Source of the DNA: Candidatus Woesearchaeota archaeon
GTDB lineage: Archaea; Nanobdellota; Nanobdellia; Woesearchaeales; WAPJ01
Assembly (NCBI GenBank): GCA_047602885.1
Contig: JBLKOQ010000001.1
Span: 10,016-74,015, forward strand
DNA length: 64,000 bases
Direction: 5' to 3'
Below the pieces are notes generated by a model, which saw only the letters and a list, made by a program, of their open reading frames with translations, was not told where the DNA came from and did not search any database. A program made the translations under genes and the position numbers. Positions within the stretch are counted from its first letter, which is position 1. Every line of letters begins with the position of its first letter. Below, in pieces: positions 5,724-63,734 of the stretch.

Positions 5724-5780
5724 AATTATTTACCCTAATAGGGATATGGGGGTTAGTAAGTCATTATAATAATTAGCCCT

Positions 5781-5921
5781 GGCTCTGTCCTAAATCTCCT
5801 ACTTCGCTTACCAAAACCCTATACTAAAGCATAGGAGCTTGGTAAGCTACGCCGTGCCAGTGCCATTATTGCTGCGCAAAATGACACCAACAATGGCAAC
5901 GACGGAGTCTTAGGACAGAGC
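5781..5921. mobile_element. MITE-like element, copy 4 (same GGCTCTGT termini as the other three copies, different internal sequence), flanked by perfect 10-bp direct repeat AATTAGCCCT
   Basis: 5' end GGCTCTGTCCTAAATCTCC and 3' end reverse-complementary GGAGTCTTAGGACAGAGC; direct repeats at 5771-5780 and 5922-5931; GC-rich and internally hairpinned relative to surroundings. Confidence 0.45.
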
Positions 5922-5970
5922 AATTAGCCCTAAAACGCTTATAAACAATATGGTGTGGTATAGCATCACA

Positions 5971-6000: not shown

Positions 6001-7476
6001 ATGGCAATAAAAGCAATAATAATAGGGGCTGGCTATGGAGGGCTTAGCTGCGCAGCACTCCTGGCTAAGGAAGGATATGACGTTCATGTAATAGACAAGA
6101 TAGAACAAGCAGGAGGAAAAGGAAGCCTGCTCCAAGAGGAAGGATTCTCATTCGATATGGGACCTAGCTGGTACCTAATGCCCGACGTATTCGAAAAGTT
6201 CTTCAGCGAATTTGGGAAGAAGCCTGAAGACTATTATACTATAAAGAGGCTTGACCCGTCATACAGGATATACTTTGGGAAGGATGACAAGATAGACATA
6301 AGCCCGAGAATAGAGGACAATGCAGAACTGTTTGATAAACTGGAAGAGAATGGCAGAAAGAAATTCCTGGATTATTTGGCACAGTCAGAATACCAGTATA
6401 ATGTGGCTATGAAGGACTTCGTATACAAGAGGTACACTAAGATAACCGATTTTTTTAACAAAAGGATGGCTACGGAGGGTATGAAGCTAAAAGTGCTAAA
6501 GAATTTTGATAAGCACGTAAGCACATACTTCAAGAGCGACAAGGCAAAAAAGATACTCGAATACAATATAGTATTTCTTGGAGGAACGCCATACAATACC
6601 CCTGCATTGTACAGCATAATGACTCACGTAGACTTCAACCTTGGAGTATGGTATCCTATAGGAGGACTAAACGCAGTAGCAAAAGGAATAGAAAAACTTG
6701 CTTTAGAGCATAATGCAAAATTCACATATAATCATACTGCAGAAAAGATAATAGTAGAAAACGGCAGAGCAGTAGGAGTGATGACCAACAAGGGGAGGAT
6801 AGATGCTGACATAGTCGTCGTTAATGCTGACATGCCACACGCCGAAATCAGCTTATTGGACAAGAAATACCAGTCTTATAACGAAAAGTATTGGGAGAAG
6901 AAGACTATAGCGCCCTCAGGGTTCATAATGTATCTTGGTGTAAAAAGGAAAGTGAAAGGATTAGAACATCATAATCTATTCCTGGACAATGACTGGATGA
7001 AACACTTCGACCAGATATTCAAGAAGCCCGGATGGCCTGACAATCCATCATACTATGTGTGCGCTCCTACAATAACAGAGCCAGAAACAGCTCCTAACGG
7101 AATGGAAAACCTATTCATACTGGTTCCTGTAGCAGCCGACCTGGAGGACAATAACGACATAAGAGAAGAGTATGCCTCCGACATAATAAGGCATTTGGGA
7201 AGCATAATAGGTGATGATTTCAGCAAAGACATAGTATACAAGAAGATATTCGCCCATAATGATTTCATACAAAGATATAATGCGTATAAAGGTACAGCAC
7301 TAGGATTATCACACACCCTCATGCAGTCAGCACTATTCAGGCCTGACGTTAAGAGCAAGAAAGTAAAATCATTGTATTATACTGGACAATACGTGCATCC
7401 CGGCATAGGAGTGCCCATGGTAATAATAGCATCAGACATACTGCGCGGTGTAATACTAAATGAGCATCCGCTTTGA
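6001..7476 (+). CDS. crtI: phytoene desaturase-family FAD-dependent carotenoid desaturase (CrtI/CrtD)
   Basis: N-terminal dinucleotide-binding motif IIGAGYGGLSCAALLAKEGYDVHVIDK...GG; 491 aa; operon with crtB. Confidence 0.85.
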   Translation: MAIKAIIIGAGYGGLSCAALLAKEGYDVHVIDKIEQAGGKGSLLQEEGFSFDMGPSWYLMPDVFEKFFSEFGKKPEDYYTIKRLDPSYRIYFGKDDKIDISPRIEDNAELFDKLEENGRKKFLDYLAQSEYQYNVAMKDFVYKRYTKITDFFNKRMATEGMKLKVLKNFDKHVSTYFKSDKAKKILEYNIVFLGGTPYNTPALYSIMTHVDFNLGVWYPIGGLNAVAKGIEKLALEHNAKFTYNHTAEKIIVENGRAVGVMTNKGRIDADIVVVNADMPHAEISLLDKKYQSYNEKYWEKKTIAPSGFIMYLGVKRKVKGLEHHNLFLDNDWMKHFDQIFKKPGWPDNPSYYVCAPTITEPETAPNGMENLFILVPVAADLEDNNDIREEYASDIIRHLGSIIGDDFSKDIVYKKIFAHNDFIQRYNAYKGTALGLSHTLMQSALFRPDVKSKKVKSLYYTGQYVHPGIGVPMVIIASDILRGVILNEHPL

Positions 7477-8287
7477 AAAAATATTCAAGAGAGCAAGTAC
7501 AACCTACTATTATAGTAGCATATTCTTTCCTAAAAGAACAAAAATAGATATTTTTGCATTGTATGCTTATGTCAGGACGGCAGACGACTATGTCGATTCC
7601 ACACCGCAAGACAGCAAGGGATTCTTGCAATACAAGAAAGAAACATTCGACATGCTAGACGGAAAAAGAGACTCGGATAATATGATAATAGCCGAGTTTG
7701 TAAGGCTTTCCAAGAGAAAAGGATTTGAGAGGGAATGGATAGTTTCATTCCTTAACGCTATGGAATCAGACCTTACAAAAAAGACTTACGATAATAGTAA
7801 GGAATTGGACTTATACATATACGGCTCTGCCGAAGTAATAGGGCTTATGATATGCAAGATTATAGGAATAAAAAAAGAGTATTATCAAGGCGCAAAAAAA
7901 ATGGGTTATAGCATGCAACTAATCAACTTCATAAGAGACATAGAAGAAGACAATAACCTTGGAAGAACATACATTCCTGAAGAAGAATACAAGAAGCACG
8001 GTTTGAATAGCCTTACAAGAAAGGAAGCTGTAAGAAATGGAGAAGCTTTTGAAAATATCATAAGAGAACAGATAAAAAAGTATAAGAGCATAAAAAAAGA
8101 AGCGCATAAATCATTAAGAGGAATACCTTACAGGCAGAGAATACCTATAAAGACAGCGTCCGACCTTTACAATTGGACTGCAGACCAGATCGATAATAAT
8201 CCCATGATAGTATACAGTAAAAAGGTTAAACCCAAAAAGTCACGAGTAATATTATACATTATAAGAAACGCAATATTTCCATGGTAG
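7460..8287 (+). CDS. crtB: phytoene synthase (squalene/phytoene synthase family)
   Basis: Two Asp-rich motifs YAYVRTADDYVDS and FIRDIEEDNNLGRTYIP; overlaps crtI by 17 nt. Confidence 0.8.
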   Translation: MSIRFEKIFKRASTTYYYSSIFFPKRTKIDIFALYAYVRTADDYVDSTPQDSKGFLQYKKETFDMLDGKRDSDNMIIAEFVRLSKRKGFEREWIVSFLNAMESDLTKKTYDNSKELDLYIYGSAEVIGLMICKIIGIKKEYYQGAKKMGYSMQLINFIRDIEEDNNLGRTYIPEEEYKKHGLNSLTRKEAVRNGEAFENIIREQIKKYKSIKKEAHKSLRGIPYRQRIPIKTASDLYNWTADQIDNNPMIVYSKKVKPKKSRVILYIIRNAIFPW

Positions 8288-8288
8288 A

Positions 8289-9143
8289 TTGATCATAATG
8301 GACATCAAAAGAATAATAAAAATGTCAAGGCCGAGATTCTGGCTATATCTGGCAGGAACATTCATGGTAGGATACGCTTACGGAATAAATGATGTTTCAT
8401 CACTGTTACAACCATCATTCATTATACCATTCCTAATATTCCTGATACCAGCAAACATATTCGTATACGGTATTAATGATATTGCAGACAGGGAGATGGA
8501 CAAGAACAATCCAAAAAAGGATGACAATAAAGAGAGTGCTGTAAGGAAAGGAGAGGAGAAGACTATTGCGATAACAGTATGGGCAAGCCTCATAATAATG
8601 ATAACAGGACTCATGTTTTATACTGACATTACAGGAATGATATTATTGGCTGTATTTATCATATTAGGGGCAGGATATAGCCTAAAACCATTACGTCTTA
8701 AAGAAAAACCTTTCCTGGACTTTCTGTCAAACTCATTCTATATAATCCCAGGAATAATAGGATATTATATAGCATCAAACAGCGTGCCTCCCATGATAAT
8801 ATGGCTTATGGGAATAAGCTGGACGGGAGCAATGCACCTCTACAGTGCAATACCAGACATCATCCCAGACAAGAAGTCAGGAATAATGACCGCTGCAACA
8901 GTACTCGGACACAAGAACAGCCTATTATATTGTTCATTATTATGGAGTCTTTTTGTATTGTCACTCATAATACTTGAGGTACACATAATACTATTATTGG
9001 CAAGCCTTACTTATGTAATAATACCACTAATACTAATGTTCATGCCACAAGAAAGCGTTACGAGAGCATACTGGAAATATCCTTACATCAACGCTTTTAT
9101 AGGGATGCTGTTCTTTCTTAACGCAGTACTAATGATAATATGA
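8289..9143 (+). CDS. UbiA-family prenyltransferase, likely lycopene elongase-type given its carotenoid context
   Basis: NDIADREMD motif (UbiA NDxxDxxxD), about 8 TM helices; immediately after crtB. Confidence 0.6.
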   Translation: MIIMDIKRIIKMSRPRFWLYLAGTFMVGYAYGINDVSSLLQPSFIIPFLIFLIPANIFVYGINDIADREMDKNNPKKDDNKESAVRKGEEKTIAITVWASLIIMITGLMFYTDITGMILLAVFIILGAGYSLKPLRLKEKPFLDFLSNSFYIIPGIIGYYIASNSVPPMIIWLMGISWTGAMHLYSAIPDIIPDKKSGIMTAATVLGHKNSLLYCSLLWSLFVLSLIILEVHIILLLASLTYVIIPLILMFMPQESVTRAYWKYPYINAFIGMLFFLNAVLMII

Positions 9144-9152
9144 GATGATACT

Positions 9153-9932
9153 ATGAACAGGGAAAAGAATGTCATACCAATAATACCCTCATTATTCATA
9201 TTTACCATAATACTAATAGCATTTTCAGGACTTATGACAGGACTAGGATACGAGCTTAGAGGGCATGGCATAATAGCAATGACACTAACATTCCTCATAG
9301 GACTCCCTACCATAATAGCAGTAGGCAAGTATAAGGAAGGAATAAGACTATTGTTAATACTTGGAATATACACTTATATCATAGAATCCATCGGAGTAAT
9401 AACAGGGTATCCTTACGGGAGATTCTATTATGGGGAGATGATGGGATACAACCTATTTGGCATAGTTCCTATAGTACTGCCACTAGCATACATGCCACTA
9501 GCTATAGGCGCATATTATATTGCAGACAAACTATCTCCCAATAAGGCCATGATAATAACACTTAAGATAATGATGCTATTGTTGTTCGATTTAGTTTTGG
9601 ATCCTGGGGCTGCGGCTCTCGGATACTGGATATGGGAAAATTCTGGAGCATACTATGGGATACCACTAACCAATTATATAGGATGGATTATAAGCAGCCT
9701 TATTACAGCACTGATATGCTCATATCATTATAAGAGCATTAGAAAAGCCAATCCTAAACTAATACTTGCAAGCCCATTATTGTTCATGGTATACTGGACA
9801 TTCACAGTAATAGGCCTTGGGATGATAATACCAAGCATTATAGGAATAATAACTATTATAGTATTAGGAGGGTTTATAGTAAGTCCCAAAGCAAGAAGAT
9901 ACCATCATGGCAATACCTTTAAAAGCAAATAA
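9153..9932 (+). CDS. carotenoid-biosynthesis-associated integral membrane protein (CruF-like hydratase candidate)
   Basis: Polytopic membrane protein with TGYPYGRFYYG motif, sited after the UbiA gene as lyeJ-cruF is in haloarchaeal C50 carotenoid clusters; assignment by context. Confidence 0.4.
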   Translation: MNREKNVIPIIPSLFIFTIILIAFSGLMTGLGYELRGHGIIAMTLTFLIGLPTIIAVGKYKEGIRLLLILGIYTYIIESIGVITGYPYGRFYYGEMMGYNLFGIVPIVLPLAYMPLAIGAYYIADKLSPNKAMIITLKIMMLLLFDLVLDPGAAALGYWIWENSGAYYGIPLTNYIGWIISSLITALICSYHYKSIRKANPKLILASPLLFMVYWTFTVIGLGMIIPSIIGIITIIVLGGFIVSPKARRYHHGNTFKSK

Positions 9933-15685: not shown

Positions 15686-16324
15686 ATGCAAACCAATATA
15701 AATGATACTATTATAGTATCAATTGATACTAAAATGGAAACGAAATTAAGGATTATAAACAGGATAGACAGGAAAAGCGGCGGAGTGCACATAAGGCAAC
15801 TGGCAAGAGAGGCTAATACAAGCTATAATAATGCAGTAAGAAACATCAGGATACTCGAAAAAGAGAATATTGTAAGAAGAATAAAAGATGCCAACCTCAT
15901 AAAAATATCCCTAAAAGACAATCCTATGACAATAGCATACCTCAAAAAAGTTCATACAGAAAAATACTATAATCTTCCACGAAGAGCAATATTAGCTGTG
16001 AATGAACTAATAAAAGAAATCATCCCAAAACCCCTAATATGCCTAATATTCGGATCATACGCCCGGGGAGATTACCACAAGGATTCGGACATCGACCTGC
16101 TGCTTGTATTCCAGAATGTACAGTCATCAATAAATATAGAAAGACTGGCAAAGGCTATAGGTATGAGAAACAATATAGTTATCAGTCCAATTTACATGAA
16201 CTACAAGGAATATTCTACCAACTTTCTAAACGTAGAACACGATTTCTCTAAAGAAATAAGAAATGACACGATAATAGTTTTAGGACTAGAACACTATTAT
16301 GAGCTATACTGGAGAATATTATAA
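15686..16324 (+). CDS. winged-HTH + minimal nucleotidyltransferase (MNT) domain protein, paralog 1 of 4
   Basis: GSYARGDYHKDSDIDLLLVF polymerase-beta-type NTase motif (GS...DxD) after N-terminal wHTH. Confidence 0.65.
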   Translation: MQTNINDTIIVSIDTKMETKLRIINRIDRKSGGVHIRQLAREANTSYNNAVRNIRILEKENIVRRIKDANLIKISLKDNPMTIAYLKKVHTEKYYNLPRRAILAVNELIKEIIPKPLICLIFGSYARGDYHKDSDIDLLLVFQNVQSSINIERLAKAIGMRNNIVISPIYMNYKEYSTNFLNVEHDFSKEIRNDTIIVLGLEHYYELYWRIL

Positions 16325-19744: not shown

Positions 19745-19787
19745 TACAAAAATATCATAATAGACTTATAAATACTTCTATCAGAAG

Positions 19788-19922
19788 GGCTCTGTTGCAA
19801 ATCTCAGAAAAAGTGTGCTATGCGCCACCCCGCAGGGGGCATCCCCCGGCACATCAGCGTCAAGCGTGAACGTTCGTTCCCGCTCCAGCTGACGGCTGCC
19901 GCACACTATTTGCAACAGAGCC
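19788..19922. mobile_element. MITE-like element copy 1 (GC-rich core, 15-bp inverted termini GGCTCTGTTGCAAAT, TSD TATCAGAAG)
   Basis: Terminal inverted repeats; direct repeats at 19779-19787 and 19923-19931; about 60% GC island in AT-rich DNA; homologous to the copies at 26981 and 52831. Confidence 0.55.
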
Positions 19923-19940
19923 TATCAGAAGATTCAATCC

Positions 19941-26164: not shown

Positions 26165-26932
26165 TTATTGCATCTGATACTGCTTTATCAGGTCTTCATA
26201 ATCCATATCCTCATAAGCAGTAGGACTGCTCGGAAGGTCAAAGACTCCTGAAGGAATACTCCTGGAGATGCTTGTAGCTATCATCTCAGACTCTGTAGTC
26301 ATCCCCTCAAACTCCTGCATACTCTTAACATATACGGGAATGCCTTCAGGAGTATAACAATAATCCATAGTACCCATGCCAATAACAGCCCTATAACAAT
26401 TGCTAGTAACCCCTGCTACTGTCTTTGGAGGAAGCCTTGATACTACTCCTTGTTCTATTATGGCTATGCTCTCTTCGTCTACCTGCTCAACACTATCCCC
26501 TACAGGAATACTAGAGTAGTCCATGCAATTCCAAGCGCCCATAATAAGAGTACAAGTATAATAATTATCTCCTAATACGTAAGACCTGGATTCTATGCCC
26601 TGCATAAGAGTATCCACTCTTATCCTGCCATCACTGCTCACATAATAAGTTGCTTTCATATCCTGCTGCACAGGACCAGAGGATATTTTCATATCATATT
26701 CTATATGATAGTTCATAGTCATCTGCCTCCTCATAAGTCCTGCAAGCTCTTGGTTAAGAGCATTGTCTCCACTACTCTCTACCACATTTTGTTCTGGAGT
26801 TTTAGGAACACTATCGTCAATTACTAATTCATTGTCGTCTATAACAATAGGTGCAGGCTGAGTATCATCGTTGCAACCGGCAATAGCCAGTGCAATAACA
26901 GCTAACAATATTATAGCTTTCATAAGATCCAC
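26165..26932 (-). CDS. secreted lipoprotein-like hypothetical protein
   Basis: Signal peptide with IAGC|NDD lipobox-like cysteine; 255 aa. Confidence 0.45.
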   Translation of the reverse strand: MDLMKAIILLAVIALAIAGCNDDTQPAPIVIDDNELVIDDSVPKTPEQNVVESSGDNALNQELAGLMRRQMTMNYHIEYDMKISSGPVQQDMKATYYVSSDGRIRVDTLMQGIESRSYVLGDNYYTCTLIMGAWNCMDYSSIPVGDSVEQVDEESIAIIEQGVVSRLPPKTVAGVTSNCYRAVIGMGTMDYCYTPEGIPVYVKSMQEFEGMTTESEMIATSISRSIPSGVFDLPSSPTAYEDMDYEDLIKQYQMQ

Positions 26933-26980
26933 CCTATACTACAGGCAATAACCATGTTATATATAACTTGTGAATTAAAT

Positions 26981-27115
26981 GGCTCTGTAGAAAATGTCCG
27001 AAAAAATGTGCTATGCGCCACCCCGAAGGGGTCATCCCCCAGCGCATCAGCGTCAAGCAAGAACATATGTTCTTGCTCCAGCTGACGGCTGCCGCACACT
27101 TTTTACTGCAGAATC
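26981..27115. mobile_element. MITE-like element copy 2 (same GC-rich core; TSD GAATTAAAT / GAATCAAAT)
   Basis: GGCTCTGTAGAAAAT ... TTTTACTGCAGAATC inverted termini; imperfect 9-bp direct repeats at 26972-26980 and 27116-27124; core about 85% identical to copies 1 and 3. Confidence 0.55.
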
Positions 27116-27118
27116 GAA

Positions 27119-27871
27119 TCAAATATCTATAATCTTCTCTACTTGGGTAGCAAACACTATCCACAATAACAATCCAGCACTAATCATCAGTCCAATAGCA
27201 TATCCTATAGGAGCATACAGCATGAATATTCCAAACAATCCTACAGCAGCCAGTAATGCCCAGTACATAGGATTATGGTATATAGTATAGAATCCTCCCC
27301 CATTAGGGATTGGAATAACATTAGCAAGACTGGTCCATACCATAGCTACTATAATGGCATTGGTTACAGGATTGCTAAAACCGAATATTATTATGAACAG
27401 CATGGCGATAAAGAGGTTAGAGAGCATACCTGCAAAACCCATCTTGGCATAGTCTGAAAGATTAATGCCGTGCCTGAACTTTCCTGTCCTCTGATACCTC
27501 AATATCTTAGCTTCCATGTCAGGAACGAATATTAACGGTGCAAGGCCTGCAGAGAATATGCCCACAAACAGTCCTGCGGCTATCTTCCAAGGAGAATACA
27601 ATACTTTTACATCAAAACCCTTATGCAAAGCCCAAGCCTTCTGTACCAATACATTAAGATATATTGCTATTCCGGCAGCGATAATTGCAAGCAGCATTGC
27701 CATGGACTGCCTTGCAGGATCAACAGGAAGGAATTCCCTAAAAATATTATAGTCCTCAAAGCCCAATACGAAGCCGCCTACAGCAATAAAAGCTATAATA
27801 ATCTTATTCTCATCCCATCGTGGAATGCAATACTTCTGGTAGTCGTGCCACCATCCTGAAAGGCTGAACAT
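27119..27871 (-). CDS. hypothetical integral membrane protein (6 TM)
   Basis: 250-aa ORF; MITE copy 2 abuts its stop codon. Confidence 0.4.
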   Translation of the reverse strand: MFSLSGWWHDYQKYCIPRWDENKIIIAFIAVGGFVLGFEDYNIFREFLPVDPARQSMAMLLAIIAAGIAIYLNVLVQKAWALHKGFDVKVLYSPWKIAAGLFVGIFSAGLAPLIFVPDMEAKILRYQRTGKFRHGINLSDYAKMGFAGMLSNLFIAMLFIIIFGFSNPVTNAIIVAMVWTSLANVIPIPNGGGFYTIYHNPMYWALLAAVGLFGIFMLYAPIGYAIGLMISAGLLLWIVFATQVEKIIDI

Positions 27872-32321: not shown

Positions 32322-32903
32322 CTATCTTATCATCTCATAGAAATATTCCGTTCCGTGCAATATAATATTATTATTAATCGCTTCTGAGCCCACAGTAAAT
32401 TCTTTAGACATACTCATAGACTTGAATTCTGTTTCATTAAAAACGTTGATATGTAGAGGCAGTGGTATAGTGGATGATATGCTCATTATTTCTTTATTCA
32501 TAATTTCTTCTAGACCATCGGGTATGATGAACAATAGATCAATATCAGAATGTCTTGTTGGGTTTCTTTTAGCATAACTTCCAAAAAGCAACAATACGAA
32601 GAATACAGTACTCATATTATTATAATAGCTTAAAACTGCTCTTATCGTCTTATTTCTTAGGATATCTTCTCTTCTATTATGCTCTGCTTCAAATATGTAG
32701 GGGTGCGGTTTTTTTACTAGTGTGACTTTGTGGGCATTTCCAAAAGGCTCTAATACTACTATGTTATTGTTTGCTAATCTCATAATTATATTATGCATGT
32801 TCTTATAATCCTTTTTTAGTATCTTGGCCAGTCCTCTAATGCTCAATCTCAGGTTATTGTAGTCCAATAATGCCTGGATAACTTTTACATCTGCTTTTTG
32901 CAT
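32322..32903 (-). CDS. winged-HTH + minimal nucleotidyltransferase (MNT) protein, paralog 3 (no HEPN partner)
   Basis: LFGSYAKRNPTRHSDIDLLFII NTase motif. Confidence 0.6.
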   Translation of the reverse strand: MQKADVKVIQALLDYNNLRLSIRGLAKILKKDYKNMHNIIMRLANNNIVVLEPFGNAHKVTLVKKPHPYIFEAEHNRREDILRNKTIRAVLSYYNNMSTVFFVLLLFGSYAKRNPTRHSDIDLLFIIPDGLEEIMNKEIMSISSTIPLPLHINVFNETEFKSMSMSKEFTVGSEAINNNIILHGTEYFYEMIR

Positions 32904-35421: not shown

Positions 35422-38400
35422 TTGGGCTTGAAACAAGTTGTAGTGCAAGTAACGATAGTAGTAGTTATAATAGCTGCGCTTATATTCACATTCTTTAGTA
35501 TTGGAGAGCCTACAATTACAGGTTATGCTGTATTTGAGAGCAGTGTTAGTAATGTCAGTTATGACGTGGAAAGGGTAGTGTTGCCACAAGAAACTTATAC
35601 TATTCAGTTGGAAGATAATGTTGTTGTAAGAGGAATAGTAATTAATGGTTATTATATTGCAAGCAAAGATTCTAGTATTATTGCAAGGCTTGATGAAGGG
35701 ACTATTAGTCATGAATTGAGGTTGAGAAGCAATGTTATTACTGGCATGGCTATCGGTGCTGGAGAAGTTGAGAGTGGTATGATAGAAGAAGACTTGGCTA
35801 ATAGGACTTTGTTGAGGTATGGTGATGGTCCTTATGATATCGATAATGATGGAATGGTAGGGAGACAAGGAGCAGTAGACTATTATGTTGAAACTAATGC
35901 TTCTTGTGTATTATGGAGTATTGTAGGGGATGATGTTGACCTATTCTGTCAGGGAACAATAGAATGCTGTGACAGTTATCTATTGGAGAGCATGGATGAC
36001 AATCCCAATTATTTAGTGTTGGATAGGCAAAGAGCAGGTGCTGACAGAGGAGAAGTATTGGCCAAAGCTGACGGTTATGATTTTAGTAGAATGTTGCCTT
36101 ATGATTTTACTGGTGCTGAGGAGAGACTGGTAAGATTGGATGATGTTTGTTTGGGAAGTTGTAATGTTAGGATGCAGAGCAGTAGTATAAGGATAGAGAG
36201 CAGTGCTTATTTGCATATAGACAGGATTATAGTATATTATGATGATTTGCCAGACGATGAGATATTTGATACAGAGGATGGCAACATAATAGAAGAAGTA
36301 TTACCAGAAAAAAGAGTCATAAGAGAAGAGATGATAGAATATATAGTGTATGAGTCAGAAGGAGGTATTATTGGAAGAACCGTCTCAGAACTAAAAAGTC
36401 ATTATGGTCTTAGCAGGGCATCTGAACGTTCAGCAAAGATATTTTCAATGGATTATGAGCATATCAGTGAAGAGGAAGAAACAGAGTATACCGAAGGGAT
36501 TAATGCTCATATAATTAGAGTATCATCAGAGCTTCTAAATCTAGTAACAGAAGAAAGCGTAAGAATCATAATATTAAATGAATCAGGAATATACTCAGAA
36601 TACGCCAATAATTTATCAGAGCTAAACGAAATACTACACTCTAAAGAAGTTATAACAGCTAGTATCGACAGACAAATAGAATTGTTAACACAAGATACTC
36701 TTAATGCATCAGGGTTTATATCAGTATATAATGAGTATGAGGTTTCTGGTTCTGGTGTTCGTGTATGTATTGTAGATACGGGTGTATCGGGTCATGTGGT
36801 TGAGAATATATCATATACTGGTGTCAATGTTCTTGATGGTACCGATGACATAATGGATTACCATGGCCATGGTACTCTTGTTTCGTACCCTTTGATTCGT
36901 GCATTACCTGATGCCCATTATGTGATTGTAAAGGCTTTGGATGATACTGGGATAGGATATGAGTCTGATGTTATTTCTGGATTGGATGCGTGTGCTGAAC
37001 ATGATGTTGATGTTGTTTCTCTTTCTATAGGAGCTGGATTGTATGATGGGTACTGTGATACTAACCTTGTATCAGAGCGTGTGAATGAACTTGTGTCTGA
37101 AGGAGTCTTGGTAGTTTCTGCTGCAGGTAATGAGGCTGGTCCTTATTTGAAGGCTCCTTCATGCGCTTCCTCTGCTCTTGCAGTTATTGCTTACACTGAT
37201 GATTCGTTATGGTATCAGTCTTCATACTTGGAAGGTCATGCAGTATTTGCCGCTCCTGGTGTTGTTGAGACTATTGGTCCTGATGGTTCTGTGGTTTTAT
37301 CTTCTGGTACGTCTATGAGTGTTCCTTTTGTTAGTGCAGCTGCTGGTTTATTGGTTGAGTATACTAATGACACGGGACTAGTGTTACGTAACAGACTGGT
37401 TGGCACAGGTGATCTGCTTGGTGATGAGTTCTTGTTTTCTCGTCTGAATGTTTCGAGGGCTTTTTCGGGTGAGATTACGAATGAGTTGTTGTATAATATT
37501 AGCGAGGGCGTTGAGGTAGAGGGGACTGTATATTATCGTGGTACGAGTTTTATTGCAGGAACTATCACCACAGGAAATGGGCATTCGTGTGGTATTCGTG
37601 CTGTTGATGGTCGTGTTTTGTGCTGGGGTAGGAATAACGTGGGTCAAATTGGCGATGGTACAACTGCAGGTCCTCGTACGAATCCTACTTTAACTACTGA
37701 TACTTCTGCATATACTTTTATTTCATCAGGCGAACAACATTCGTGTGGTATTCGTGCTAATGATTCTCGTGTTTTGTGCTGGGGTAGTAACGGGAATGGT
37801 GTGCTTGGTGATGGTACTACTGTTCAGCGTGAAAATCCTACTTTGATTAATGATTCTTCAGCGTATCTTACACTTGGGTTAGGTCAAGGTCATTCGTGTG
37901 GTATTCGTGCTAATGATTCTCGTGTTTTGTGCTGGGGTTGGAATGGGAATGGTCGACTTGGTGACGGTACGGATGAAGCTCGTTGGAATCCTACATTGAC
38001 TTCTGATACTTCTGCATACAGCGGAATAACTGCAGGTGCCCACTACTCGTGTGGTATTCGTGCTAATGATTCTCGTGTTTTGTGCTGGGGCACTAATAAT
38101 TATGGTCAGCTTGGTGATGGTACAGATGTTGTTCGTTGGAATCCTACATTGACTTCTGATACTTCCGCTTACCTACATGTTTCTGGAGGAGGTTGGCATT
38201 CGTGTGGTATTCGTGCTAGTGATTCTCGTGTTTTGTGCTGGGGTAGGAATAACGTGGGTCAGATTGGCGATGGTACTACCACCACTCCTCGATTGAATCC
38301 CACTTTAACTACTAACACGTCTGCGCATGGTACTGTTTCTGCTGGAAACGATTATTCGTGTGGTATTCGTGTCAATGATTCTCGTGTTTTGTGCTGGGGT

Positions 38401-41400
38401 GCTAATGATTATGGTCGGCTTGGTGATGGTACTACTACAGGTCCTCGTACAAATCCCACTTTGACTGCAGACTCTTCTGCATATGTAGCCGTTTCAGCGG
38501 GGGATTGGCACACTTGTGGTATAAGATCTTACGATGGTCGTGTGTTGTGTTGGGGGTATAACGAGTTCGGTCAGATTGGCGATGGTACCACTACGACTCC
38601 ACGTCAAAATCCAACGCTTACAAGCAACATGGCTCCATTCGCCGAAATTCCTTGGGTCTTTACAACATGCGAAGCAACTGGTCGCACTGGTCCTACTCAA
38701 GGTATGTGTGACGATGCATACGAATACTCTTATCTGAACAATAGTGTAACTGTATCTTCAGGCATACAATCATGGACTGTTCCTGAGACGGGATGGTATA
38801 ATGTTACTGCAGTTGGAGCTCAAGGAGGATACGGTGGGAGAACGGGTGTTGGGGGATACGGCGCTCTCATTTCAGGTGCTTTCTACTTCGAAGAGGGAGA
38901 GACAATCAATGTTCTCGTTGGTCAGAAAGGTGGAGATAACTCGTTTCGACCGGCAGGTGGTGGTGGAAGTGCAGTGTGGAAGGATACTGGAACCGAACTC
39001 CTCATCGTCGCTGGAGGTGGAGGAGCGTATGCAGTTGGAACAACGACCACCTACCAGGACCGAGCACACGCGAGCAACACAACAAGTGGGAAGGATGGAT
39101 TTGGTGCCACGGCTCAGAGCGTGGGTGGAACCGGAGGTCTTGGAGGTGCCGGAACAGGTAACCGAGCCTCTGGTGGTGGAGGATGGTTTACTGATGGTGG
39201 ACAGGGCACGACGGCTGACAGTCGTGGCCGATCCCTCTCAGGAGGGGGTCTTGGAGGTGGTGGTGCTGTAGCTGACGGTGGATTTGGTGGTGGCGGAGCG
39301 ACCGATAGCACGACGACATGGGGTGCTGCTTCTGGTGGTGGTGGGTACTCTGGTGGTGGGGGTGGGTATTCTAACACAAACGATGCTGAAGGAGCTGGGG
39401 GCGGTGGAGGATCATACAATTCTGGGTTGTTCCAGTATAACGTCGGAGGAGAGAACGCTGATCATGGCTTGGTCATTATCGAGCCATACGGTGATGTCTC
39501 ATTACTCACCGTGGGAGTTACTCCTTCTCCCGAAGCGAACGCTACCGATGATCTTCTTGGATATTGTACGAGTGATGTCATCGATGGATTCGACCGGATC
39601 GACTATGAGTGGAGACGTGACGGCATAGTCGAGTACATGGGAACGTACTTTAGAGCAGATACGATCACAGCGCATGAAGCTCACACTTGTGGTATTCGTG
39701 CTAATGATTCTCGTGTGTTATGTTGGGGACGCGCGGGTAGTGGTGAGATTGGGAATGGAAGCAAGCTACCACAAGTGCTTAATCCAACACTCACCTCTGA
39801 TACTGATCCTTACCTTCAAGTGAGCGTCGGATTCACTCATTCGTGTGGTATCCGCTATGACGGAAGAGTGCTCTGCTGGGGAAACAACGCTGAAGGGCAG
39901 TTGGGAACAAACGATACGACTGAACGACTCGTTCCTACTTTGATTGCGGATGATGCTGCCTACCATTCCCTCAGCGCAGGATACCGGATGAATTGTGCGA
40001 TACGTGCTAATGATTCTCGTGTGTTATGTTGGGGTGACAATGTATTCTCTCAACTCGGCAGTGGAGGTGGATCGGTGAGCGTTCCGAGGCTCATCAATGA
40101 TACCGCTTCCTACCTGATGGTTTCCACTTACAAGTACCACGCGTGTGGTATTCGTGCTAATGATTCTCGTGTGTTGTGCTGGGGGATGAACTGGTACGGT
40201 CAGGGTGGTAATGGAACAACTGACGAGTTCGTGTCATCCGAGACTCCGACCCTCACGACCGATAGTTCACCATATGTAATGGTAACAACAGGTGCCTCTC
40301 ATACGTGTGGTATTCGTGCTAGTGATTCTCGCGTGTTGTGCTGGGGTCGTAATAATAATGGGCAGCTTGGAATCGGTTCGAGCGGTACAAATGTCGGTAA
40401 CCCCACAACGACTTCAGATTCATCTGCATATCACTACATAGATGCTGGTTGGCAGTTCTCATGTGGCATCAGATCGTCTGATAATAGAGGTCTTTGTTGG
40501 GGGGATAATGGTGAGGATAAACTTGGTATCGGAACGACCGGTAATCGTGAAAACCCTACACTTATATCTGCTTCGTTTGCGATATCGTTGATTACTGCTG
40601 GTGAACGCCATGGGTGTGTGGTTCGCTCTTCGAATGGGCGTGTGTACTGCTGGGGACAAACTGCTGAAGGACGTACAGGAGATGGGGTAGGTATTGGTAC
40701 TGAGCACACACCGACGCTCACAACAGACACTTCCTCGTATGCGTACTTACCTGCTATTGCCTCTGGCGTGCAGTATAACCTCTCAACACTTGACTCAACG
40801 ATAACGAATGGTGGAGACTCATGGACGTTCTCATGCCGGATTACAGACGGTCGAACGACCTATCCATACGAGGAGAGTGCTACGATAACGATTGCAAACA
40901 TTATTCCGATTTATTCAAAGTTTGATGGTTCAACAACGAACTTTTCTGATGCTAGTGTTGTTCCTGACCTTTCAAGCGTGAGCAATCCGATTCTTGAGAT
41001 ATCCACGTTCGGACGCATCACATGGAAAGGTATGGTAAACGTTCCTAGTTCAGATTATGATTCTCATGTGCATATTGGTTATCGGTACATTTTTGTTAAT
41101 AGTAGCGCGTTGCATTCATCTCATGATTCGGGTTCGAATTTGAGCTTTTATGATACGGGCTTCGTGCATGCTCCTGTCATCCTCAAAGATAGTTCTGTGT
41201 GTGAACAACCCTTGTGTAACATGACTGGATTTGTTGATGGTTACGTGAATTACTCAGTGGCTGGTTTCTCAAACTACACGCTTGATTCTAATAGTCGATT
41301 GGAGATCTGGGATGGTACTGATCCTCAAGGAGGAAATAATTCGTATGAGGTTGGTGAATCGGTGCCTTTCTATGCAAATTATTCGAATCTGACTTCTGGT

Positions 41401-44400
41401 GAACCGATTTCGGGTTCGGGGAACGATTGTGAGATCCAATTTGATACTGGGAGCGGGTATGGGAGTTTTATAGAGATGGAATTTAACGCAACAAGTAACT
41501 TGTACGAGTACAACACCACATTTGGATCTGCAGGGACGTTCAGTTATAACGTGAGTTGCACTAGCACCCAAGGATATGAGAACCTGAGCGTGACTAATGA
41601 GTTCACATACAATCCTGCAAACTGTTTTGACAATTCGACGAGTCCTATACCAATTTGTACATGTACTGATCTTAGCAGGATGTGGGAGAACCTTACAGCA
41701 AACTATGAATTGCAGAATAATATAGACTGTAGTGATACTATTAATTGGAATGATGATGAGGGATGGCTGCCTGTAGGGACAACAGGTACGGGTTTTAGTG
41801 GTACGCTGGATGGGCAGGGATATAATATTACTGACTTGTTCATTGCTCGAAATAATGTTGGTTATCAAGGTTTGTTTGGTCAGTTAACTACAGGAGGAAG
41901 CATTACTGATTTAGGTTTGGTGAATGCGAATATCACCATAAAAGACACACTCAGTATAGTGACTCCATATATTGGGATTCTTGTAGGATATATCGATGGA
42001 GGCAGTGTCTCTGGATCTTATGTCACAAATAGTATTCTCTATAGTGATTTTCCCTCTACTGGTGGTCTTATAGGAGAAATGAGTGGTGGTAGTGTTGTCT
42101 CATCTTCTTTTGTTAGTGGTTCTAGTGTTTCTTCTTCTACTAGTAATGTTGGTGGTCTTATAGGAAGAATGAGTGGTGGTAGTGTGTCATCTTCTTATAC
42201 GGTGGATTCTAGTGTTTCTTCTACTGGTAGTAGTGTTGGTGGTCTTGTAGGATATATGCTGAGTGGTAGTGTTGTTTCATCGTCTTATACTATTGGTTCT
42301 AATGTTTCTTCTACTAGTACTCGGGTTGGTGGTCTCGTAGGAAGAATGTGGAGTGGTTCTAGTATTGTTGATTCTTACAGTACTAGTAATGTTTATGCTC
42401 TTGCAGGAGAAAACTTACAATATCATGGTGGACTAGTAGGACAAAACTATAGGGGAGTGATAAACAATTCTTATAGTACAGGAATAGTTAATAGTACACA
42501 TGATGATAGTGGTGGTTTTGTAGGAAGCGTAGATACAGGAGCTGCGACTTATGGTATGTATGGTAACTTCTGGGATAACCAGACAAGCGGTCGTAGTACT
42601 AGTGCTGGTGATAATGTAACAGGACTTACTACAGCGCAGATGTATAATATCAGTCAGTTCTTAGCGGCAGATTGGAATATTAGTGAGATTAGCGGTTATA
42701 ATAATGAGACTTGGTTTATTGATGATGGTAATGATTATCCTAGATTATGGTTTGAGTTTGATCTTGCTTTATTGGATATTGAGTCTGTAGGCATTATTCC
42801 AAGTCCTTTTGCTTTGGATGATGAGAATCTCGTAGGGTATTGTAGTGCTACTGGTAGTGAGAATTTTACGAGGTTGGATTATTTGTGGTATAAGGATGAT
42901 GTAGTGGAGTATGGGGGTGCTTATTTCAAGGAAGGAAGTATTAGTGCTGGTGGGGAGTTTTCTTGTGGTGTTCGTGCTAATGATTCTCGTTTGTTGTGTT
43001 GGGGTGCTAATTTTGTTGGTAAGTTGGGTATTGGTAATACTACTCATATGTATAGTCCTGTTTTGGTTGATTCTTCTGATGCTTTTTTGAGTGTTTCTGT
43101 GGGTGTTTCTCATTCTTGTGGTGTTCGTGCTAATGATTCTCGTGTTTTGTGTTGGGGGCTAAATAGTGAGGGGCAGTTGGGTATTGGTAATACTACTGAT
43201 ATGTTTAGTCCTGTTTTGGTTGATTCTTCTGATGCTTTTTTGAGTGTTTCTTTAGGTAGTTTTCATTCTTGTGGTGTTCGTGCTAATGATTCTCGTGTTT
43301 TGTGCTGGGGTGGTAATATTTATGGTCAGTTGGGTGTTGGTAATACTACTGATATGTTTAGTCCTGTTTTGGTTGATTCTTCTGATGCTTTTTTGAGTGT
43401 TTCTTTAGGTAGTTTTCATTCTTGTGGTGTTCGTGCTAATGATTCTCGTGTTTTGTGTTGGGGTGGTAATTGGGTTGGTCAGTTGGGTGTTGGTAGCGCT
43501 GTTTATGATTCGTGTTTTGATGGTTATGAATATTACGATTGTAGTTTGAATCCTGTTTTGGTTGATTCTTCTGATGCTTTTTTGAGTGTTATGGTGGGTG
43601 TTTCTCATTCTTGTGGTGTTAGGGCGAGTGATTCTCGTTTGTTGTGTTGGGGTGCTAATGCTAATGGTCAGTTGGGTGTTGGTAATACTACTGATATGTT
43701 TAGTCCTGTTTTGGTTGATTCTTCTGATGCTTTTTTGAGTGTTGGTCTTGGTTTTGGACATTCTTGTGGTGTTAGGGCGAGTGATTCTCGTGTTTTGTGT
43801 TGGGGACGTAATTTTGGAGGTCAGTTGGGTGTTGGTAATACTACTAGTCCTATTATGGTTCCTGTTTTGGTTGATTCTTCTGATGCTTTTTTGAGTGTTG
43901 ATGGTGGTTTTGGTGGTGGTTTTGGTGAGCAGCATACGTGTGGTGTTCGTGCTGTTGATGGTCGTGTTTTGTGTTGGGGTGATGGTTCTTTTGGTGCTTT
44001 GGGAACAGGCAATACTAGTTCTCAGTTGAGTCCGACTCTTACTATTGATTCGAGCAGTTATCTTAGGGGGCTTTCTCCGCAGACGACTTATAATGTTTCT
44101 TTGATAGGGAGTGGGTTGACTAGTTTGGGGGAGGAGTGGAAGCTTAGTTGTCGCGCTGTAAATGTTACTAGTGCGGGGGATTTTGTTAATTCTACTGTTA
44201 CTACGATTGATGAGGGTGAAGAGGGTTTGGATTGTGGTGTTATCGATGAGCCTGGAGAGTATATTATGAATGGCGACCTTGCGGCTACCGGAACTTGTAT
44301 TACTATTAATGTTAGTGATGTTTCATTAGATTGTCAGGGTCATACGATCAACTACTCTACAAACGATGACGAGGGCTACGGTATCCTGATATGGAGCCAG

Positions 44401-47400
44401 AGCGGGACGGTCGAAAACGTGAGTATCGCGAACTGTAACATCATCAAAGAGAGTCCTGGAGGGAGCTCAGGGAGTAGGCGCCCAGCTATCCTCGGATACG
44501 GCTACTCAGGTACTCCTTCAGGAGGTTTCACAAAATCAGGTGATGAGCATACTGTTGAGCAAGTAAATATATCGAACGTTACTATCACGACCGAGGGAGA
44601 TTATGCTCGAGGCATATTTGTCTTAAGTGGTCATACTTGGAGTGTCGAAGATGTCTCTATCACAACGTATGGAGATGATGCCCGAGGAATCTACAGCGAG
44701 AACTCTGATCATTGGAGTCTCAGGAGAGTTGATATCACGACCTTTGGAACTGTAGGGATAGGACTGTATACGATCGATGCAAACCACTACTATCTCAAGG
44801 ACATCGATATCACTGCTGCGAGCGCAGGCATGTGGATCCGCACGGGAAGTTCGAACTGGCGGGCAGAGAACATTTCGATAAATGCTACGCTTCAAGGTAT
44901 CGCGACATCGGACGGAGGTATGGCTCACATGAGTTTTTACAACTCTACGATCCACTCATCAGGAAGCCGGGGATTAGATACCAATCAAGGTACAGATAAC
45001 ATCAGCTTCTACGATTCTATTATCACCGCTCCATCAAGTGACGATGTATACATGCGTCTTGGTGATGCGAGTCGGCGTGTTACGTTCGTCAACGTGACTT
45101 TCAACCCTTCCAGTGTCACGTTCCATGACTCGACCTCAGGATTCCTCGACGTTGGATGGTACGTCGACTTTCTCGTAAACGATACTCTAAGTTATCGAGT
45201 TGAGAATGCTAATATTAGTTGGCAGGATTCTGGTGTTATGAGCAGTTTGAACCCTAACAGTACTGGTTGGAAATTAACTGATAGTGGTGGATTGTCTCTA
45301 AGAAATATATTGTATGAGTACTCGCAGAACCAAACTGCTAGGTACTATCATACTAACTATAGCTTCGACATAAGTAGCCCATCATACGCTTCCCTTGTTG
45401 GAGCGTCTAGGAACTTCACTACAAATACACAATTGGATTTTACTATAGAGCCATTGTCGTTGGAGTGTGGTGTTATTAGCGAGCCTGGCTCTTATGTTAT
45501 GACTACTAATCTTACTGCTACAGGCACGTGTTTCACTATTAATGTTAGTGATGTAATACTGGATTGTCAGGATTATACTATTAATTATTCGACTGCTGAT
45601 GAGGGTTATGGTATTTTGATTTGGAGTCAGTCTTCTAATGTGGATAATGTTACGATACAGAACTGTGTTGTTGTGCAGGGTTCTGGTGAGGGTGATGTGA
45701 ATAGTGCGCGTCCTGGTATTTTGGGTTGGGGTGTTAATAATGGTCCGAGTGGTGGTTTGTCGAGTGTTAGTGGTATTTTTTATGAGGTTACTAATGTTTT
45801 GGTTGTGGATTCTAGTATAGTAACATTGGGTGATCGTTCGGATGCTATTAGGGGTGCGGTTTCGTATGACTGGGATGTTGTGGGTGTGAATGTTTCTACT
45901 GCTGGTCAGCTTGCTTCGGGTGTTTTTGGTACTTTTACGGGGGGTTGGTTGTTGTCTGGTGTTGATTCTTTTACTACCGGTGATAATTCTAGGGGTTTTG
46001 CTAGTTGGGATTCTGTTGATTGGGAGATTGTGGATTCTCGTTCTGAGGTTACTACTTTTTATTCTTATCCTATTCGTGCTGAGGAGGGTTCTCATGGATG
46101 GGTTCTGTCCAATGTTTCTCTTATCTCTGATGGTTTTGAGTCTGATGGGCTTCATGTGATTGATTCGGATAATTGGATGGTTGAGGGTCTTTTTGTTTCA
46201 TCATCGGGCACTCAGGCTGATGCTTTTTATTTAGAGGATTCTGATGGTTGGATGGTTTATGATTCTGATTTGTCTAGTGGGTCTGCGTTTGATGTTGTTC
46301 TTAATCTTAGTGATTCTTCGTATCGTGTTGGTTTTGTGAATACGAGTTTTGATCATTCTAGCGTGTCTCTTCTTACTCCGGGCTGGCTTGATAGGGGTTG
46401 GTGGGTGGATGCGTATGTGAATGATAGTCTTGGCAGTCCTGTAGAGGATGCTAATGTCTCTTGGAATGATGCTGGTATTATTAGTGGGAATCCTAGTAGT
46501 AGTGGTTGGAATGTTACTGATGATAGTGGACTTAGTGTTAGGAATGTCTTGTTTGAATATTCTGAGAATCAAACTGCGAGATATTATAATACTAATTATA
46601 CTATTAATGTTAGTCATGAGGATTATGATGATCTTATAGGAGAGTCAAGGAATTTTACGGGTAATACGCAGTTGAACTTTACTTTTTTGGGTGAGTCTTT
46701 AGAGTGCGGTGTTATTAGTGAGCCTGGCGAGTATGTTATGACTTCTGACTTGTCTGCTGCTGGTACTTGTTTTACTATTAATGTTTCTGATGTTAGTTTG
46801 GATTGTGGGGGTCATACGATTAACTATAGTACTGGTGAGGAGGGTTATGGTATTTTGATTTGGAGCCAGGGTGGGTTGGTTGAGAATGTGAATGTTAGTA
46901 ATTGTAATATTGTTAAGGATAGTGAGGAAGGTAATAGTTCGAGTCTTAGGCCTGCCTTACTTGTTTATGGTCGTAGTGCTGTTCCTAGTGGTTCTATTAG
47001 TGGTATTGCGGGTACTGCTCATTATGTAGATAATGTGTCTATTAATAATGTTAATGCTAGTAGTAAGGGAAATTATAGTAGTGGGATTTTTATAGTGCGA
47101 GGATGGTATTCTTCTATTAGTAATGTTATGGTTGATACTGATGGTAATTGGAGTTTTGGGATATGGGGCGATTACTCTTCTTATTGGAATATTTATAATA
47201 CTAGTATTTTTTCGTTAGGGCTGTTTAATGTTGGTCTGTATGGGGTGGATTCTAATTTTTGGGTTTTAGATAGTTTAAATGTAGATGTTGAGTTCAATGA
47301 TGGTCATGGTATTATTGGTTTTCGGTCAAATTCTTGGATTCTTTATAATGTTACTGTTATTGCTGACGGTTCTACAGTTAGGGGAATATCTCTATGGGAT

Positions 47401-53111: not shown

Positions 53112-53225
53112 ACAGGCTCTATGCCACTATTATGATTGTTAATGGGTCGGGTACATACCTCGGTCTTTAGGTCGATAGCAGTTTAACCATTAACTCCAAC
53201 ATACCGCGCCCTTTAGGGCGGGGTT
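53112..53225. repeat. family-2 short repeat copy B, preceded by a GGCTCTATGCC MITE-terminus-like sequence
   Basis: AGCAGTTTAACCATTAACTCCAACATACCGCGCCCTTTAGGGCGGGGTTG is about 80% identical to 27964-28017. Confidence 0.25.
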
Positions 53226-53463
53226 GTTGATTATGATAATAGAAATAGTATGCGTAGGGCGCATTATCATCATCACAATCCTTGATAAAAAAGAATGTAG
53301 GAAAATCCCCAATATTACTGCATACTTCATGATACTTGTATCCTGCCTCGCTAATCAGCCTGACATTGCCAAGAGCATCATAATACATTCTATTGAGGAT
53401 GCGTTTCTCATCCAATCCAATGCGATTAGAGTAGTCTACGGGTTGCATGATAATGATTGACAA
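53167..53463 (-). CDS. hypothetical protein
   Basis: 98-aa ORF; its 3' end overlaps the family-2 repeat; weak. Confidence 0.3.
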   Translation of the reverse strand: MSIIIMQPVDYSNRIGLDEKRILNRMYYDALGNVRLISEAGYKYHEVCSNIGDFPTFFFIKDCDDDNAPYAYYFYYHNQQPRPKGRGMLELMVKLLST

Positions 53464-62129: not shown

Positions 62130-63734
62130 ATGCACCCAATATTACTAAAGAGCATAGCTGTAAAGCATTATTTTAGGAGTATAATCAGCGATGCGATTGC
62201 AGAAGAATGTATGAATAGAGAAGTAGCAGTAAAATATTCTTATGGGTTCGGCAAGAGGCCTGAAATGATAGAGACAGGCGCAGAAATAAGGCAATTGGCA
62301 CTCCAAGGATCTACAAGCTATCATATAAGCGAAGAACTATGGGAAAACCCGTTAGACATTAAGACTGGGATGACAGAAAAAGAATACAACAATATAAGGA
62401 TAGGATGGGACCTCATAATAGACATAGACGCTCCCGACTGGAGGTTCTGCAAGGTAGTATGCGCTACTATGATAAGAGTACTAAAAGACCTGGGAATAAA
62501 AACTATAAGAGTGAAGTTTTCGGGCAACAAAGGATTCCACATAGGAGTGCCATGGGAATCATTTCCTAAAGAAGCATCATACAACAATAATACTGCAGAA
62601 CTATCATCATTATTCCCTCAACTTCCTAGAGAGATAGCAAGAATCATGATAGCAGAAGCTGACAAAAACCATATAAGAATAGACGACCAAGGAAAAATAA
62701 TATTTTTGGAAGAACACTATTTTGAAAGAGAAGAAATAAAAGAGATACTCGGAATAGAAGACAACGAACTCCTAGTAAAAAAGTGCGAGTCATGCAACAA
62801 TATCTATGAAGAGGACAAGACTAGAGTATACGAGTGCCCGAACTGCATGGCAAGAAGAGTATCAGAAGAAGAATACCTAAAATGCACAAACTGCAATATA
62901 GACATGAACATAATAACAAAAGTTCCGAGATGCGAATGCGGCAACACCACTTTTTATACAGCACTAAATGTAGAGAGAATACTCCATTTAGACACGCTCC
63001 TAATAAGTCCCAGGCACTTATATAGAAGTCCGTACAGCATCCACGAGAAATCAGGACTATGCAGCATACCTATAGACAAGGATACAGTACTGGGATTTGA
63101 GAAGCATTATGCAAGACCAGAATACATAGCAAAAATAATACCTTTCATTAATAGTGAGATAAGAGAGGGTGCTAACAGCAAAGAAGGAGTAAGACTCATA
63201 AGAATGGCACTGGACAATATACAAGAGCCTCTAAAAGAAACATCCTACGAAGAAATAGATGTTCCTAAAGAAGCCCTAGGAGAAGAACATTATCCTCCGT
63301 GCATAAAGAATGCATTGCAGGGAATAAAAGACGGCAAGAAGAGAACAGTACTGATAATGTCAAGCTATCTTAGGAGCATAGGATGGGATAAGAGCAGCGC
63401 AGAAAAGATAATATACTCGTGGAACAATAAGAACGAAGAGCCTCTAAGAGAAGTGTACATTAAAGGACAATTAAGACATGCATTCCAAGGAAAACCTATG
63501 CTGCCGCCGAACTGCGACCACAAGGACTATATGAAAGACATAGGACTATGCACTCCCGACGAGTTCTGCATGACCATAAGAAATCCCGCCCAATACTCAA
63601 AGAAGAAGCACGAGATGAAAAAGACTATAAGAAAGGGAAGGAAAAAGAAGGATGCCAACAAAGAAAAAAAGAAAGAAAAGAAAGAGGAAAAGACTCATAA
63701 TAAAGAGGAAAACAATAATGAGAATAACACCTGA
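62130..63734 (+). CDS. archaeo-eukaryotic DNA primase with fused domains: PriS catalytic domain with Zn-ribbon insert plus C-terminal 4-Cys PriL-CTD-like domain
   Basis: AEP motif I LIIDIDAPD, motif II FSGNKGFHIGVPW, motif III DTLLISPRHLYRSPYSIHEKSG; CxxC...CxxC ... CxC zinc ribbon; C-terminal Cys in PPCIKNAL, PNCDHKDY, LCTPDEFC; K/E-rich tail. Confidence 0.65.
   Translation: MHPILLKSIAVKHYFRSIISDAIAEECMNREVAVKYSYGFGKRPEMIETGAEIRQLALQGSTSYHISEELWENPLDIKTGMTEKEYNNIRIGWDLIIDIDAPDWRFCKVVCATMIRVLKDLGIKTIRVKFSGNKGFHIGVPWESFPKEASYNNNTAELSSLFPQLPREIARIMIAEADKNHIRIDDQGKIIFLEEHYFEREEIKEILGIEDNELLVKKCESCNNIYEEDKTRVYECPNCMARRVSEEEYLKCTNCNIDMNIITKVPRCECGNTTFYTALNVERILHLDTLLISPRHLYRSPYSIHEKSGLCSIPIDKDTVLGFEKHYARPEYIAKIIPFINSEIREGANSKEGVRLIRMALDNIQEPLKETSYEEIDVPKEALGEEHYPPCIKNALQGIKDGKKRTVLIMSSYLRSIGWDKSSAEKIIYSWNNKNEEPLREVYIKGQLRHAFQGKPMLPPNCDHKDYMKDIGLCTPDEFCMTIRNPAQYSKKKHEMKKTIRKGRKKKDANKEKKKEKKEEKTHNKEENNNENNT

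Follow-up and report, generated by a model that had tools for sequence, protein, structure and literature searches.

The GC-rich segment at positions 26981-27115 (plus strand) of the 64-kb window, i.e. the whole 64,000-nucleotide stretch of DNA analysed here, is very probably a decayed copy of a lineage-specific 135-bp MITE with IS6/IS26-type termini. The MITE-like character proposed in the original prediction is borne out by the small size of the element, its lack of coding capacity, its presence in three copies, the perfect terminal inverted repeat of copy 1 and the significant 9-bp repeats found at the borders. The family formed by these three copies is apparently new and restricted to one lineage, the kind of element itself being already known.

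Copy number and coding capacity

Whether searched by repeat finding, by alignment, with nhmmer or with a covariance model, the window has exactly three copies of the element, each of 135 nt:

19788-19922, plus strand: MITE copy 1, 135 nt, apparently intact
26981-27115, plus strand: MITE copy 2, 135 nt, with decayed termini
52831-52965, plus strand: MITE copy 3, 135 nt, decayed

All three copies are intergenic and in a single orientation. The predicted homology of copy 2 to copies 1 and 3 was recovered over exactly 135 nt in both cases, and copy 2 is matched with an E value of 2.5e-46 by nhmmer and a score of 149.7 bits by the covariance model. The same two tools detected no further copy, either in the window or among the fetched loci (about 66 kb). 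Next to copy 3, the interval up to the minus-strand ORF 53167..53463 (52966-53166) is about 200 nt long and holds no ORF of at least 90 aa, an unusually long gap for a compact genome.

With 135 nt and no coding capacity, the copies fall within the size range of about 50-800 bp that serves as a criterion for MITEs. The two ORFs said to cross copy 2 spuriously (26934..27164, minus strand; 26994..27290, plus strand) are both present in the ORF list. The copies have no reading frame in common in the alignment, copy 3 having a frame-shifting indel, and the open frames across the element are thereby ruled out as coding sequences. In addition, a six-frame chimeric peptide of all three copies, used to catch spurious ORFs called on further copies, gave zero matches among 5.8 billion proteins. 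An internal duplication had also been described at the 5' end of copy 2. It is real, as an approximate insertion or duplication of 9-10 nt that the left arm has and the right arm lacks, but it is present in all three copies and is therefore ancestral to the family rather than specific to copy 2.

Inverted repeats and target-site duplications

The two arms of copy 1 are identical at 15 of 15 positions (GGCTCTGTTGCAAAT / ATTTGCAACAGAGCC), those of copy 3 agree at 11/15 and those of copy 2 at 10/15, where the terminal inverted repeat is thus found in decayed form only. The termini announced for copy 2, GGCTCTGTAGAAAAT at 26981-26995 and CTGCAGAATC ending at 27115, are indeed those of the sequence. 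The arms and flanking repeats of copies 1 and 2 are as follows:

26981-26995, plus strand: left terminal inverted repeat of copy 2, GGCTCTGTAGAAAAT, in which G1, G2, G7 and G10 of the IS6/IS26 consensus are kept
27101-27115, minus strand: right terminal inverted repeat of copy 2, reverse complement GATTCTGCAGTAAAA, in which the family-invariant G2 is changed to A
26972-26980: left target-site duplication of copy 2, GAATTAAAT, reading ATTTAATTC on the minus strand, where it holds a relic TAA
27116-27124: right target-site duplication of copy 2, GAATCAAAT, carrying a functional TGA stop (27119-27121, minus strand)
19779-19787 and 19923-19931: target-site duplication of copy 1, TATCAGAAG on both sides (9/9)

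Every one of the six arms has G10, whereas G2 is missing from the right arm of copy 2 (GATTCTGCAG...) and G7 from the left arm of copy 3, where it is replaced by C (GGCTCTCTAG...). Given these losses, copies 2 and 3 are probably immobile relics, and copy 1, which reads as intact, is possibly still mobilisable.

The near-identical 9-mers reported on both sides of copy 2 match at 8 of 9 positions. Copy 3 is flanked by CCTTAGATT / (C)TTCAGATT, i.e. CCTTAGATT / CTTCAGATT, with 7/9 identical positions after a 1-nt shift. We compared these matches with a chance model in which 9-mers set 135 nt apart are taken at random window positions. Under this model, the probability of a flanking match is 5e-5 for 9/9, 8e-4 for at least 8/9 and 6e-3 for at least 7/9; these values counter the idea, envisaged in the original prediction, that the target-site duplication is a chance match. 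The flanking 9-mers are alike within each site (9/9, 8/9 and 7/9 for copies 1, 2 and 3, respectively) and unlike between sites, which argues for staggered-cut insertion by a DDE transposase and not for a conserved structure. Moreover, the ninth base of the duplication matches in copy 1, in copy 2 and in a second MITE at 5781-5922 (see below) while differing from site to site, and the duplication is therefore read as 9 bp rather than 8 bp.

The same signature bears on whether the element ever moved. The copies could in principle be immobile small structured RNA genes or protein-binding sites, the flanking repeats and the terminal pairing being structural or due to chance. In line with this reading, a strong structure is predicted and conserved on both strands, and all copies are intergenic and in one orientation. 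However, 9-mers that match within copies and differ between them are a mark of insertion, the termini equal a known transposon end, the element is missing at the syntenic site in relatives and Rfam returns no match. This explanation is strongly disfavoured and we consider it highly improbable. A REP/BIME or an IS200/IS605-derived palindromic element was also considered, and was ruled out by the DDE-type inverted repeats and the 9-bp duplications.

Affiliation of the ends with the IS6 family

The terminal 14 nt of copy 1, GGCTCTGTTGCAAA in both arms, match the inverted repeat of IS6100 at 14/14 positions and the IS6/IS26 consensus at 13/14. The left and right inverted repeats of IS6100 are both GGCTCTGTTGCAAA (PMC10470526). 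In the IS6/IS26 consensus, GGTTCTGTTGCAAA, G1, G2 and G7 are practically invariant, conservation is also high at G10, and positions 3-4 vary the most (PMC6807381). The likeness to IS6100 and IS26, with G1, G2, G7 and G10 conserved, ends after the terminal 14-15 bp, and the three copies further differ from these elements by having no transposase. The putative assignment to IS6 is drawn solely from 14-15 nt of terminal sequence. The 8-bp duplication typical of IS6/IS26 is replaced by one of 9 bp in copy 1, in copy 2 and in the 5781-5922 element. For an IS6-type element such a length is atypical but not unprecedented, as the archaeal ISH15 and ISPfu5 are recorded with duplications of 9 bp (PMC6807381).

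No transposase of any family was found with Pfam among 39 ORFs of the window, and the search for a parent IS in the window revealed no further inverted-repeat pair bounding an ORF. ISfinder already has two IS6-family MITEs (PMC7986276), named MITEBth2 and MITEHarch3 (PMC6807381). These elements, from Bacillus thuringiensis and Haloarcula, respectively, are protein-less too, with IS6-type ends and without a transposase gene; the ends follow GG..CTGT..AAA in both cases, and MITEHarch3 has an archaeal host as well. They differ from the present family by their described size (227 and 336 bp vs. 135 bp). The 9-bp duplication also sets the present family apart, as does its GC-rich multi-hairpin core, which matches nothing in the collections searched.

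Archaeal hosts are also known for ISH14, ISH15 and ISH29 and for ISPfu1, ISPfu2 and ISPfu5, whose ends mostly begin with GG and have G7. These archaeal IS6-like elements are autonomous and about 700-780 bp long, whereas the copies studied here are 135 nt long without a transposase. Furthermore, according to PMC6807381, G10 is absent from their inverted repeats, which span at least 18 bp, whereas our copies retain G10. The inverted repeat containing G10 is described as a bacterial pattern (PMC6807381), and yet the host of the three copies is an archaeon.

A second MITE with related ends

By examining the shared end point of two short-read contigs, we found another element in the window:

5781-5922, plus strand: second MITE, 142 nt, between divergent ThiF-like and CrtI-like genes

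The two contigs come from different samples and both stop 54 nt into this element. Its left end, GGCTCTGTCCTAAATCTCC, has 15 of 18 terminal nt in common with copy 1, its right end is GGAGTCTTAGGACAGAGCA, and it is flanked by a perfect 9-bp duplication, ATTAGCCCT (5772-5780 and 5923-5931). Its core is unrelated to that of the three copies, and its predicted fold is very stable (z = -7.7 on the plus strand and -10.7 on the minus strand). The second MITE was probably mobilised by the same transposase as the three copies or by a related one. That two MITE families have related ends and equally long duplications speaks for a single transposase activity in the lineage.

The second MITE lacks G10, and this can be read in favour of another origin of the ends: the three copies would be a MITE of a different DDE family, such as ISL3, or IS1, IS4 or IS256 with their typical 9-bp duplications, and the likeness to IS6 would be convergent. 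The duplication of 9 bp instead of the 8 bp typical of IS6 and the lack of an IS6 transposase in the window point in the same direction, as does an ISL3 example starting with GGCTCTTCGCGG. However, this example shares only its first six bases (GGCTCT) with the ends of the three copies, the CTGTTGCAAA motif is IS6-type and absent from ISL3, and ISL3 makes duplications of 8 bp and not 9 bp. ISL3 therefore fits the ends worse than IS6 does. The agreement with IS6100 (14/14) and with the IS6/IS26 consensus (13/14), the conservation of G10 in 6/6 arms and the 9-bp duplications recorded in archaeal IS6-like elements likewise speak against convergence, which we regard as unlikely.

Under the IS6-type reading, an IS6-like DDE transposase acting in trans, and encoded elsewhere in the genome or now lost, would have mobilised the element. 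This enzyme would have bound the GG...CTGT...AAA ends and cut the target with a 9-bp stagger. As in the IS6 family, insertion would probably have been replicative, through a cointegrate then resolved by host recombination. After insertion, copy 2 would have lost terminal bases (G2 of the right arm), and it is probably no longer mobile. If transcribed from the upstream gene, copy 2 would yield a very stable multi-hairpin RNA followed by U6, which may end or stabilise the upstream transcript as a side effect.

Insertion of copy 2 across a stop codon

Copy 2 is flanked by two genes that are both on the minus strand:

27119..27871, minus strand: upstream gene, 250-aa membrane-like protein, no Pfam match
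26165..26923, minus strand: downstream gene, 252-aa protein with a lipoprotein-like N-terminus (MKAIILLAVIALAIAGC), no Pfam match

The element had been described as abutting a gene stop. This wording understates the situation, since the TGA (27119-27121) is located inside the right copy of the duplication. Read on the minus strand, this right copy is ATT TGA TTC and covers the final codon of the 250-aa gene together with its TGA stop; in the left copy the sequence is ATT TAA TTC. The target 9-mer therefore spanned the stop codon, and its duplication regenerated a stop. The 250-aa protein ends with ...ATQVEKIIDI, equal in length to the ...ATQVEKIINI end found in the related contig L008, so the insertion left the protein unchanged. 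With a stop codon restored, the insertion of copy 2 across the upstream stop damaged neither of the neighbouring genes.

Without the element and one copy of the duplication, about 50 nt separate the stop from the next ATG (26923). In the spacer downstream of copy 2, a TATA-like sequence (GTTATATATAAC) occupies 26956-26967, and the ATG is preceded by a GGTGG motif. Copy 2 thus has its left end about 15 nt upstream of the TATA-like box, the presumed promoter of the lipoprotein-like gene, and the other elements are placed likewise. The distances from the left end to the ATG of the minus-strand gene are:

Copy 1: 56 nt
Copy 2: 58 nt
Copy 3: 47 nt
5781-5922 element: 58 nt

Minus-strand genes flank copies 2 and 3, and copy 1 is located between divergent genes. 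The similar distances to the ATG, observed in four cases, may result from a choice of target or from the survival of harmless insertions only in a compact genome.

Distribution of the element and relatives of the host

Exact-pattern scans with two invariant core segments gave no match in viral contigs, in GTDB species genomes or in JGI metagenomes, and blastn against plasmids and phages gave nothing meaningful for the element. No locus related to that of the neighbouring exonuclease gene was found in GTDB genomes. Proteins identical to those of the window were found only in short Logan contigs from two samples (SRR32456869 and SRR32456880). These contigs stop inside copies 1, 2 and 3 and inside the 5781-5922 element, as expected at repeats. 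Every site is filled in both samples, which contain the same organism, and neither an empty site nor an insertion polymorphism was seen there.

The nearest relatives are the JGI contigs L006/L007 and L008, whose homologues of the 250-aa protein are 68% and 76% identical to it, respectively. In these contigs the gene order is kept and no element is present at the syntenic site; in total, no copy was detected in about 42 kb of syntenic sequence of these relatives, which at 68-76% protein identity are too diverged for an empty-site comparison at the nucleotide level. Between the genes for the 250-aa and the lipoprotein-like proteins, the relatives possess a small membrane-like ORF of about 60 aa on the opposite strand (10754-10936 in L006, about 900-1070 in L008). 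This ORF is missing from the window (26924-27118), where the spacer before insertion would have been about 50 nt long.

Host genome

The host is identified as an archaeon from three proteins encoded in the window, namely a tryptophan--tRNA ligase for which the best relatives with a solved structure come from eukaryotes and archaea, a CruF-type carotenoid hydratase, and a fused primase:

62130..63734, plus strand: fused primase, a single 534-aa protein with PriS and PriL domains

We take this fusion of PriS and PriL to suggest a DPANN lineage. High densities of MITEs have been reported for some DPANN genomes (PMC11602168).

The CruF-type gene belongs to a carotenoid cluster on the plus strand (6001-9932), which encodes an amine-oxidase/CrtI-like protein, a phytoene synthase, a UbiA-type prenyltransferase and the CruF-type bisanhydrobacterioruberin hydratase, i.e. 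a bacterioruberin-like pathway in an organism with non-acidic proteins. These bacterioruberin-type genes had raised the possibility of a halophilic host; it was ruled out because the proteins are not acidic, as those of a salt-in halophile would be.

The window also contains a giant ORF of 4486 aa (35422-48882, plus strand), in which a repeat of 153 nt (51 aa) recurs many times. The homologue of this ORF in related contigs matches RCC1/RLD Pfam families, and a similarly huge gene is conserved at the syntenic position in L006 and L007, the JGI relatives. In addition, several paralogous nucleotidyltransferase genes (Polbeta/NTP_transf_2) are scattered through the window, and a ParE-like toxin gene is annotated in Logan near 23.6-24.1 kb; the loci concerned are 15686-16324, 32322-32903 and 61042-61662 of the window and 712-1278 of L001. 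The scattered nucleotidyltransferases and the ParE-like gene suggest multiple toxin-antitoxin-like modules.

Conservation and predicted structure of the core

Between its two arms, copy 2 contains a region that is better conserved than the termini:

27005..27100: GC-rich structured core of copy 2

In the alignment of the three copies, the core (columns 25-121) is variable at 15/97 columns vs. 14/39 in the termini (Fisher p = 0.011), and the identity between copies 2 and 3 is 92% in the core vs. 73% in the inverted-repeat arms. Within the core, 8 of 29 unpaired and 7 of 68 paired positions are variable (p = 0.06), i.e. the variable positions tend to be in predicted loops. Judged on these alignments, a core better kept than the ends runs counter to expectation for a MITE that is being actively mobilised. 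The pattern hints at relic copies whose core is under some constraint or at gene conversion, the three copies being non-independent.

In the predicted fold, the terminal inverted repeats make up an outer stem, and the core holds an inner inverted repeat (GTGTGC/GCACAC in the family fold), which in copy 2 is TGTGC at 27007-27011 and GCACA at 27094-27098. The segment CCCC-GNA-GGGG-NCAT-CCCCC of the copies is predicted to form either of two hairpins, in copy 2 the alternatives CCCC-GAA-GGGG and GGGG-TCAT-CCCC. A further 9-bp hairpin lies at 27056-27077 in copy 2; its apical part varies among copies, where one pair is compensated (A-T to G-C) and another is broken. The folds of all copies are more stable than those of shuffled sequences:

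All copies: fold z from -3.8 to -8.3
Copy 1: fold z of -7.2 and -8.3
Copy 2: fold z of -3.8 (plus strand) and -4.8 (minus strand)

The minus strand folds better by 7-10 kcal/mol per copy, with two conserved G.U pairs, and on this strand the structure is followed by a run of four to six U. In copy 2, this run is A6 on the plus strand (27001..27006), i.e. U6 on the minus strand, and it lies past the structured core in the direction of transcription of the flanking genes. Archaeal RNA polymerase terminates at oligo-T. It is therefore possible, on this model, that the U-run at 27001..27006 acts as an archaeal termination signal and that read-through from upstream at copies 2 and 3 could end there. 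A scan for bacterial-type promoters and terminators was uninformative, no terminator being found. Rfam at the gathering threshold gave no match over the whole window, and a permissive Rfam scan of 26900-27200 gave only a chance snoRNA match (E = 0.77) outside the core.

Small intergenic repeats that fold, are co-transcribed with their neighbours and can affect termination or RNA stability include the Correia elements of Neisseria and the enterobacterial ERIC. Their sequences and ends are unrelated to those of the three copies, and their duplications differ (TA for Correia).

These observations raise the question of whether the core was co-opted as an RNA module, i.e. a terminator or insulator between packed genes or a small regulatory RNA, and is selected while the ends decay. 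The contrast in conservation between core and ends, both over all columns and between copies 2 and 3, the tendency of variable sites to fall in loops, the compensated stem pair and folds far stabler than shuffles would fit such a role. So would the properties of the minus strand, which at copies 2 and 3 is the sense strand of the genes on either side and which combines better folding, conserved G.U pairs and the run of U4-U6. However, the comparison involves just three copies, which are non-independent, and gene conversion among them could yield the same pattern. Neither the bacterial-type terminator scan nor Rfam gave a match, no upstream transcript enters copy 1, located as it is between divergent genes, and strong hairpins are general in MITEs, including the unrelated 5781-5922 element. 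Co-option is thus a doubtful explanation of the conserved core. It is quite unlikely that the core is a selected RNA module, as a portable terminator or insulator or a small RNA, which was spread by an IS6-type MITE and domesticated in a gene-dense DPANN-like genome.

Significance

The three-copy family extends the small set of MITEs with IS6/IS26-type ends, of which ISfinder lists two, to an uncultured archaeon that has no close relative among the reference genomes searched. Bacterial IS26-type ends with G10 in an archaeal host are mildly unusual. In practice, the element accounts for the spurious ORFs called across 26934-27290, and masking these ORFs in annotation is advisable. It also breaks short-read assemblies of the host organism, and can be used as a marker for strain tracking. 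Finally, the better conservation of the core than of the ends would, if upheld with more copies, point to exaptation.
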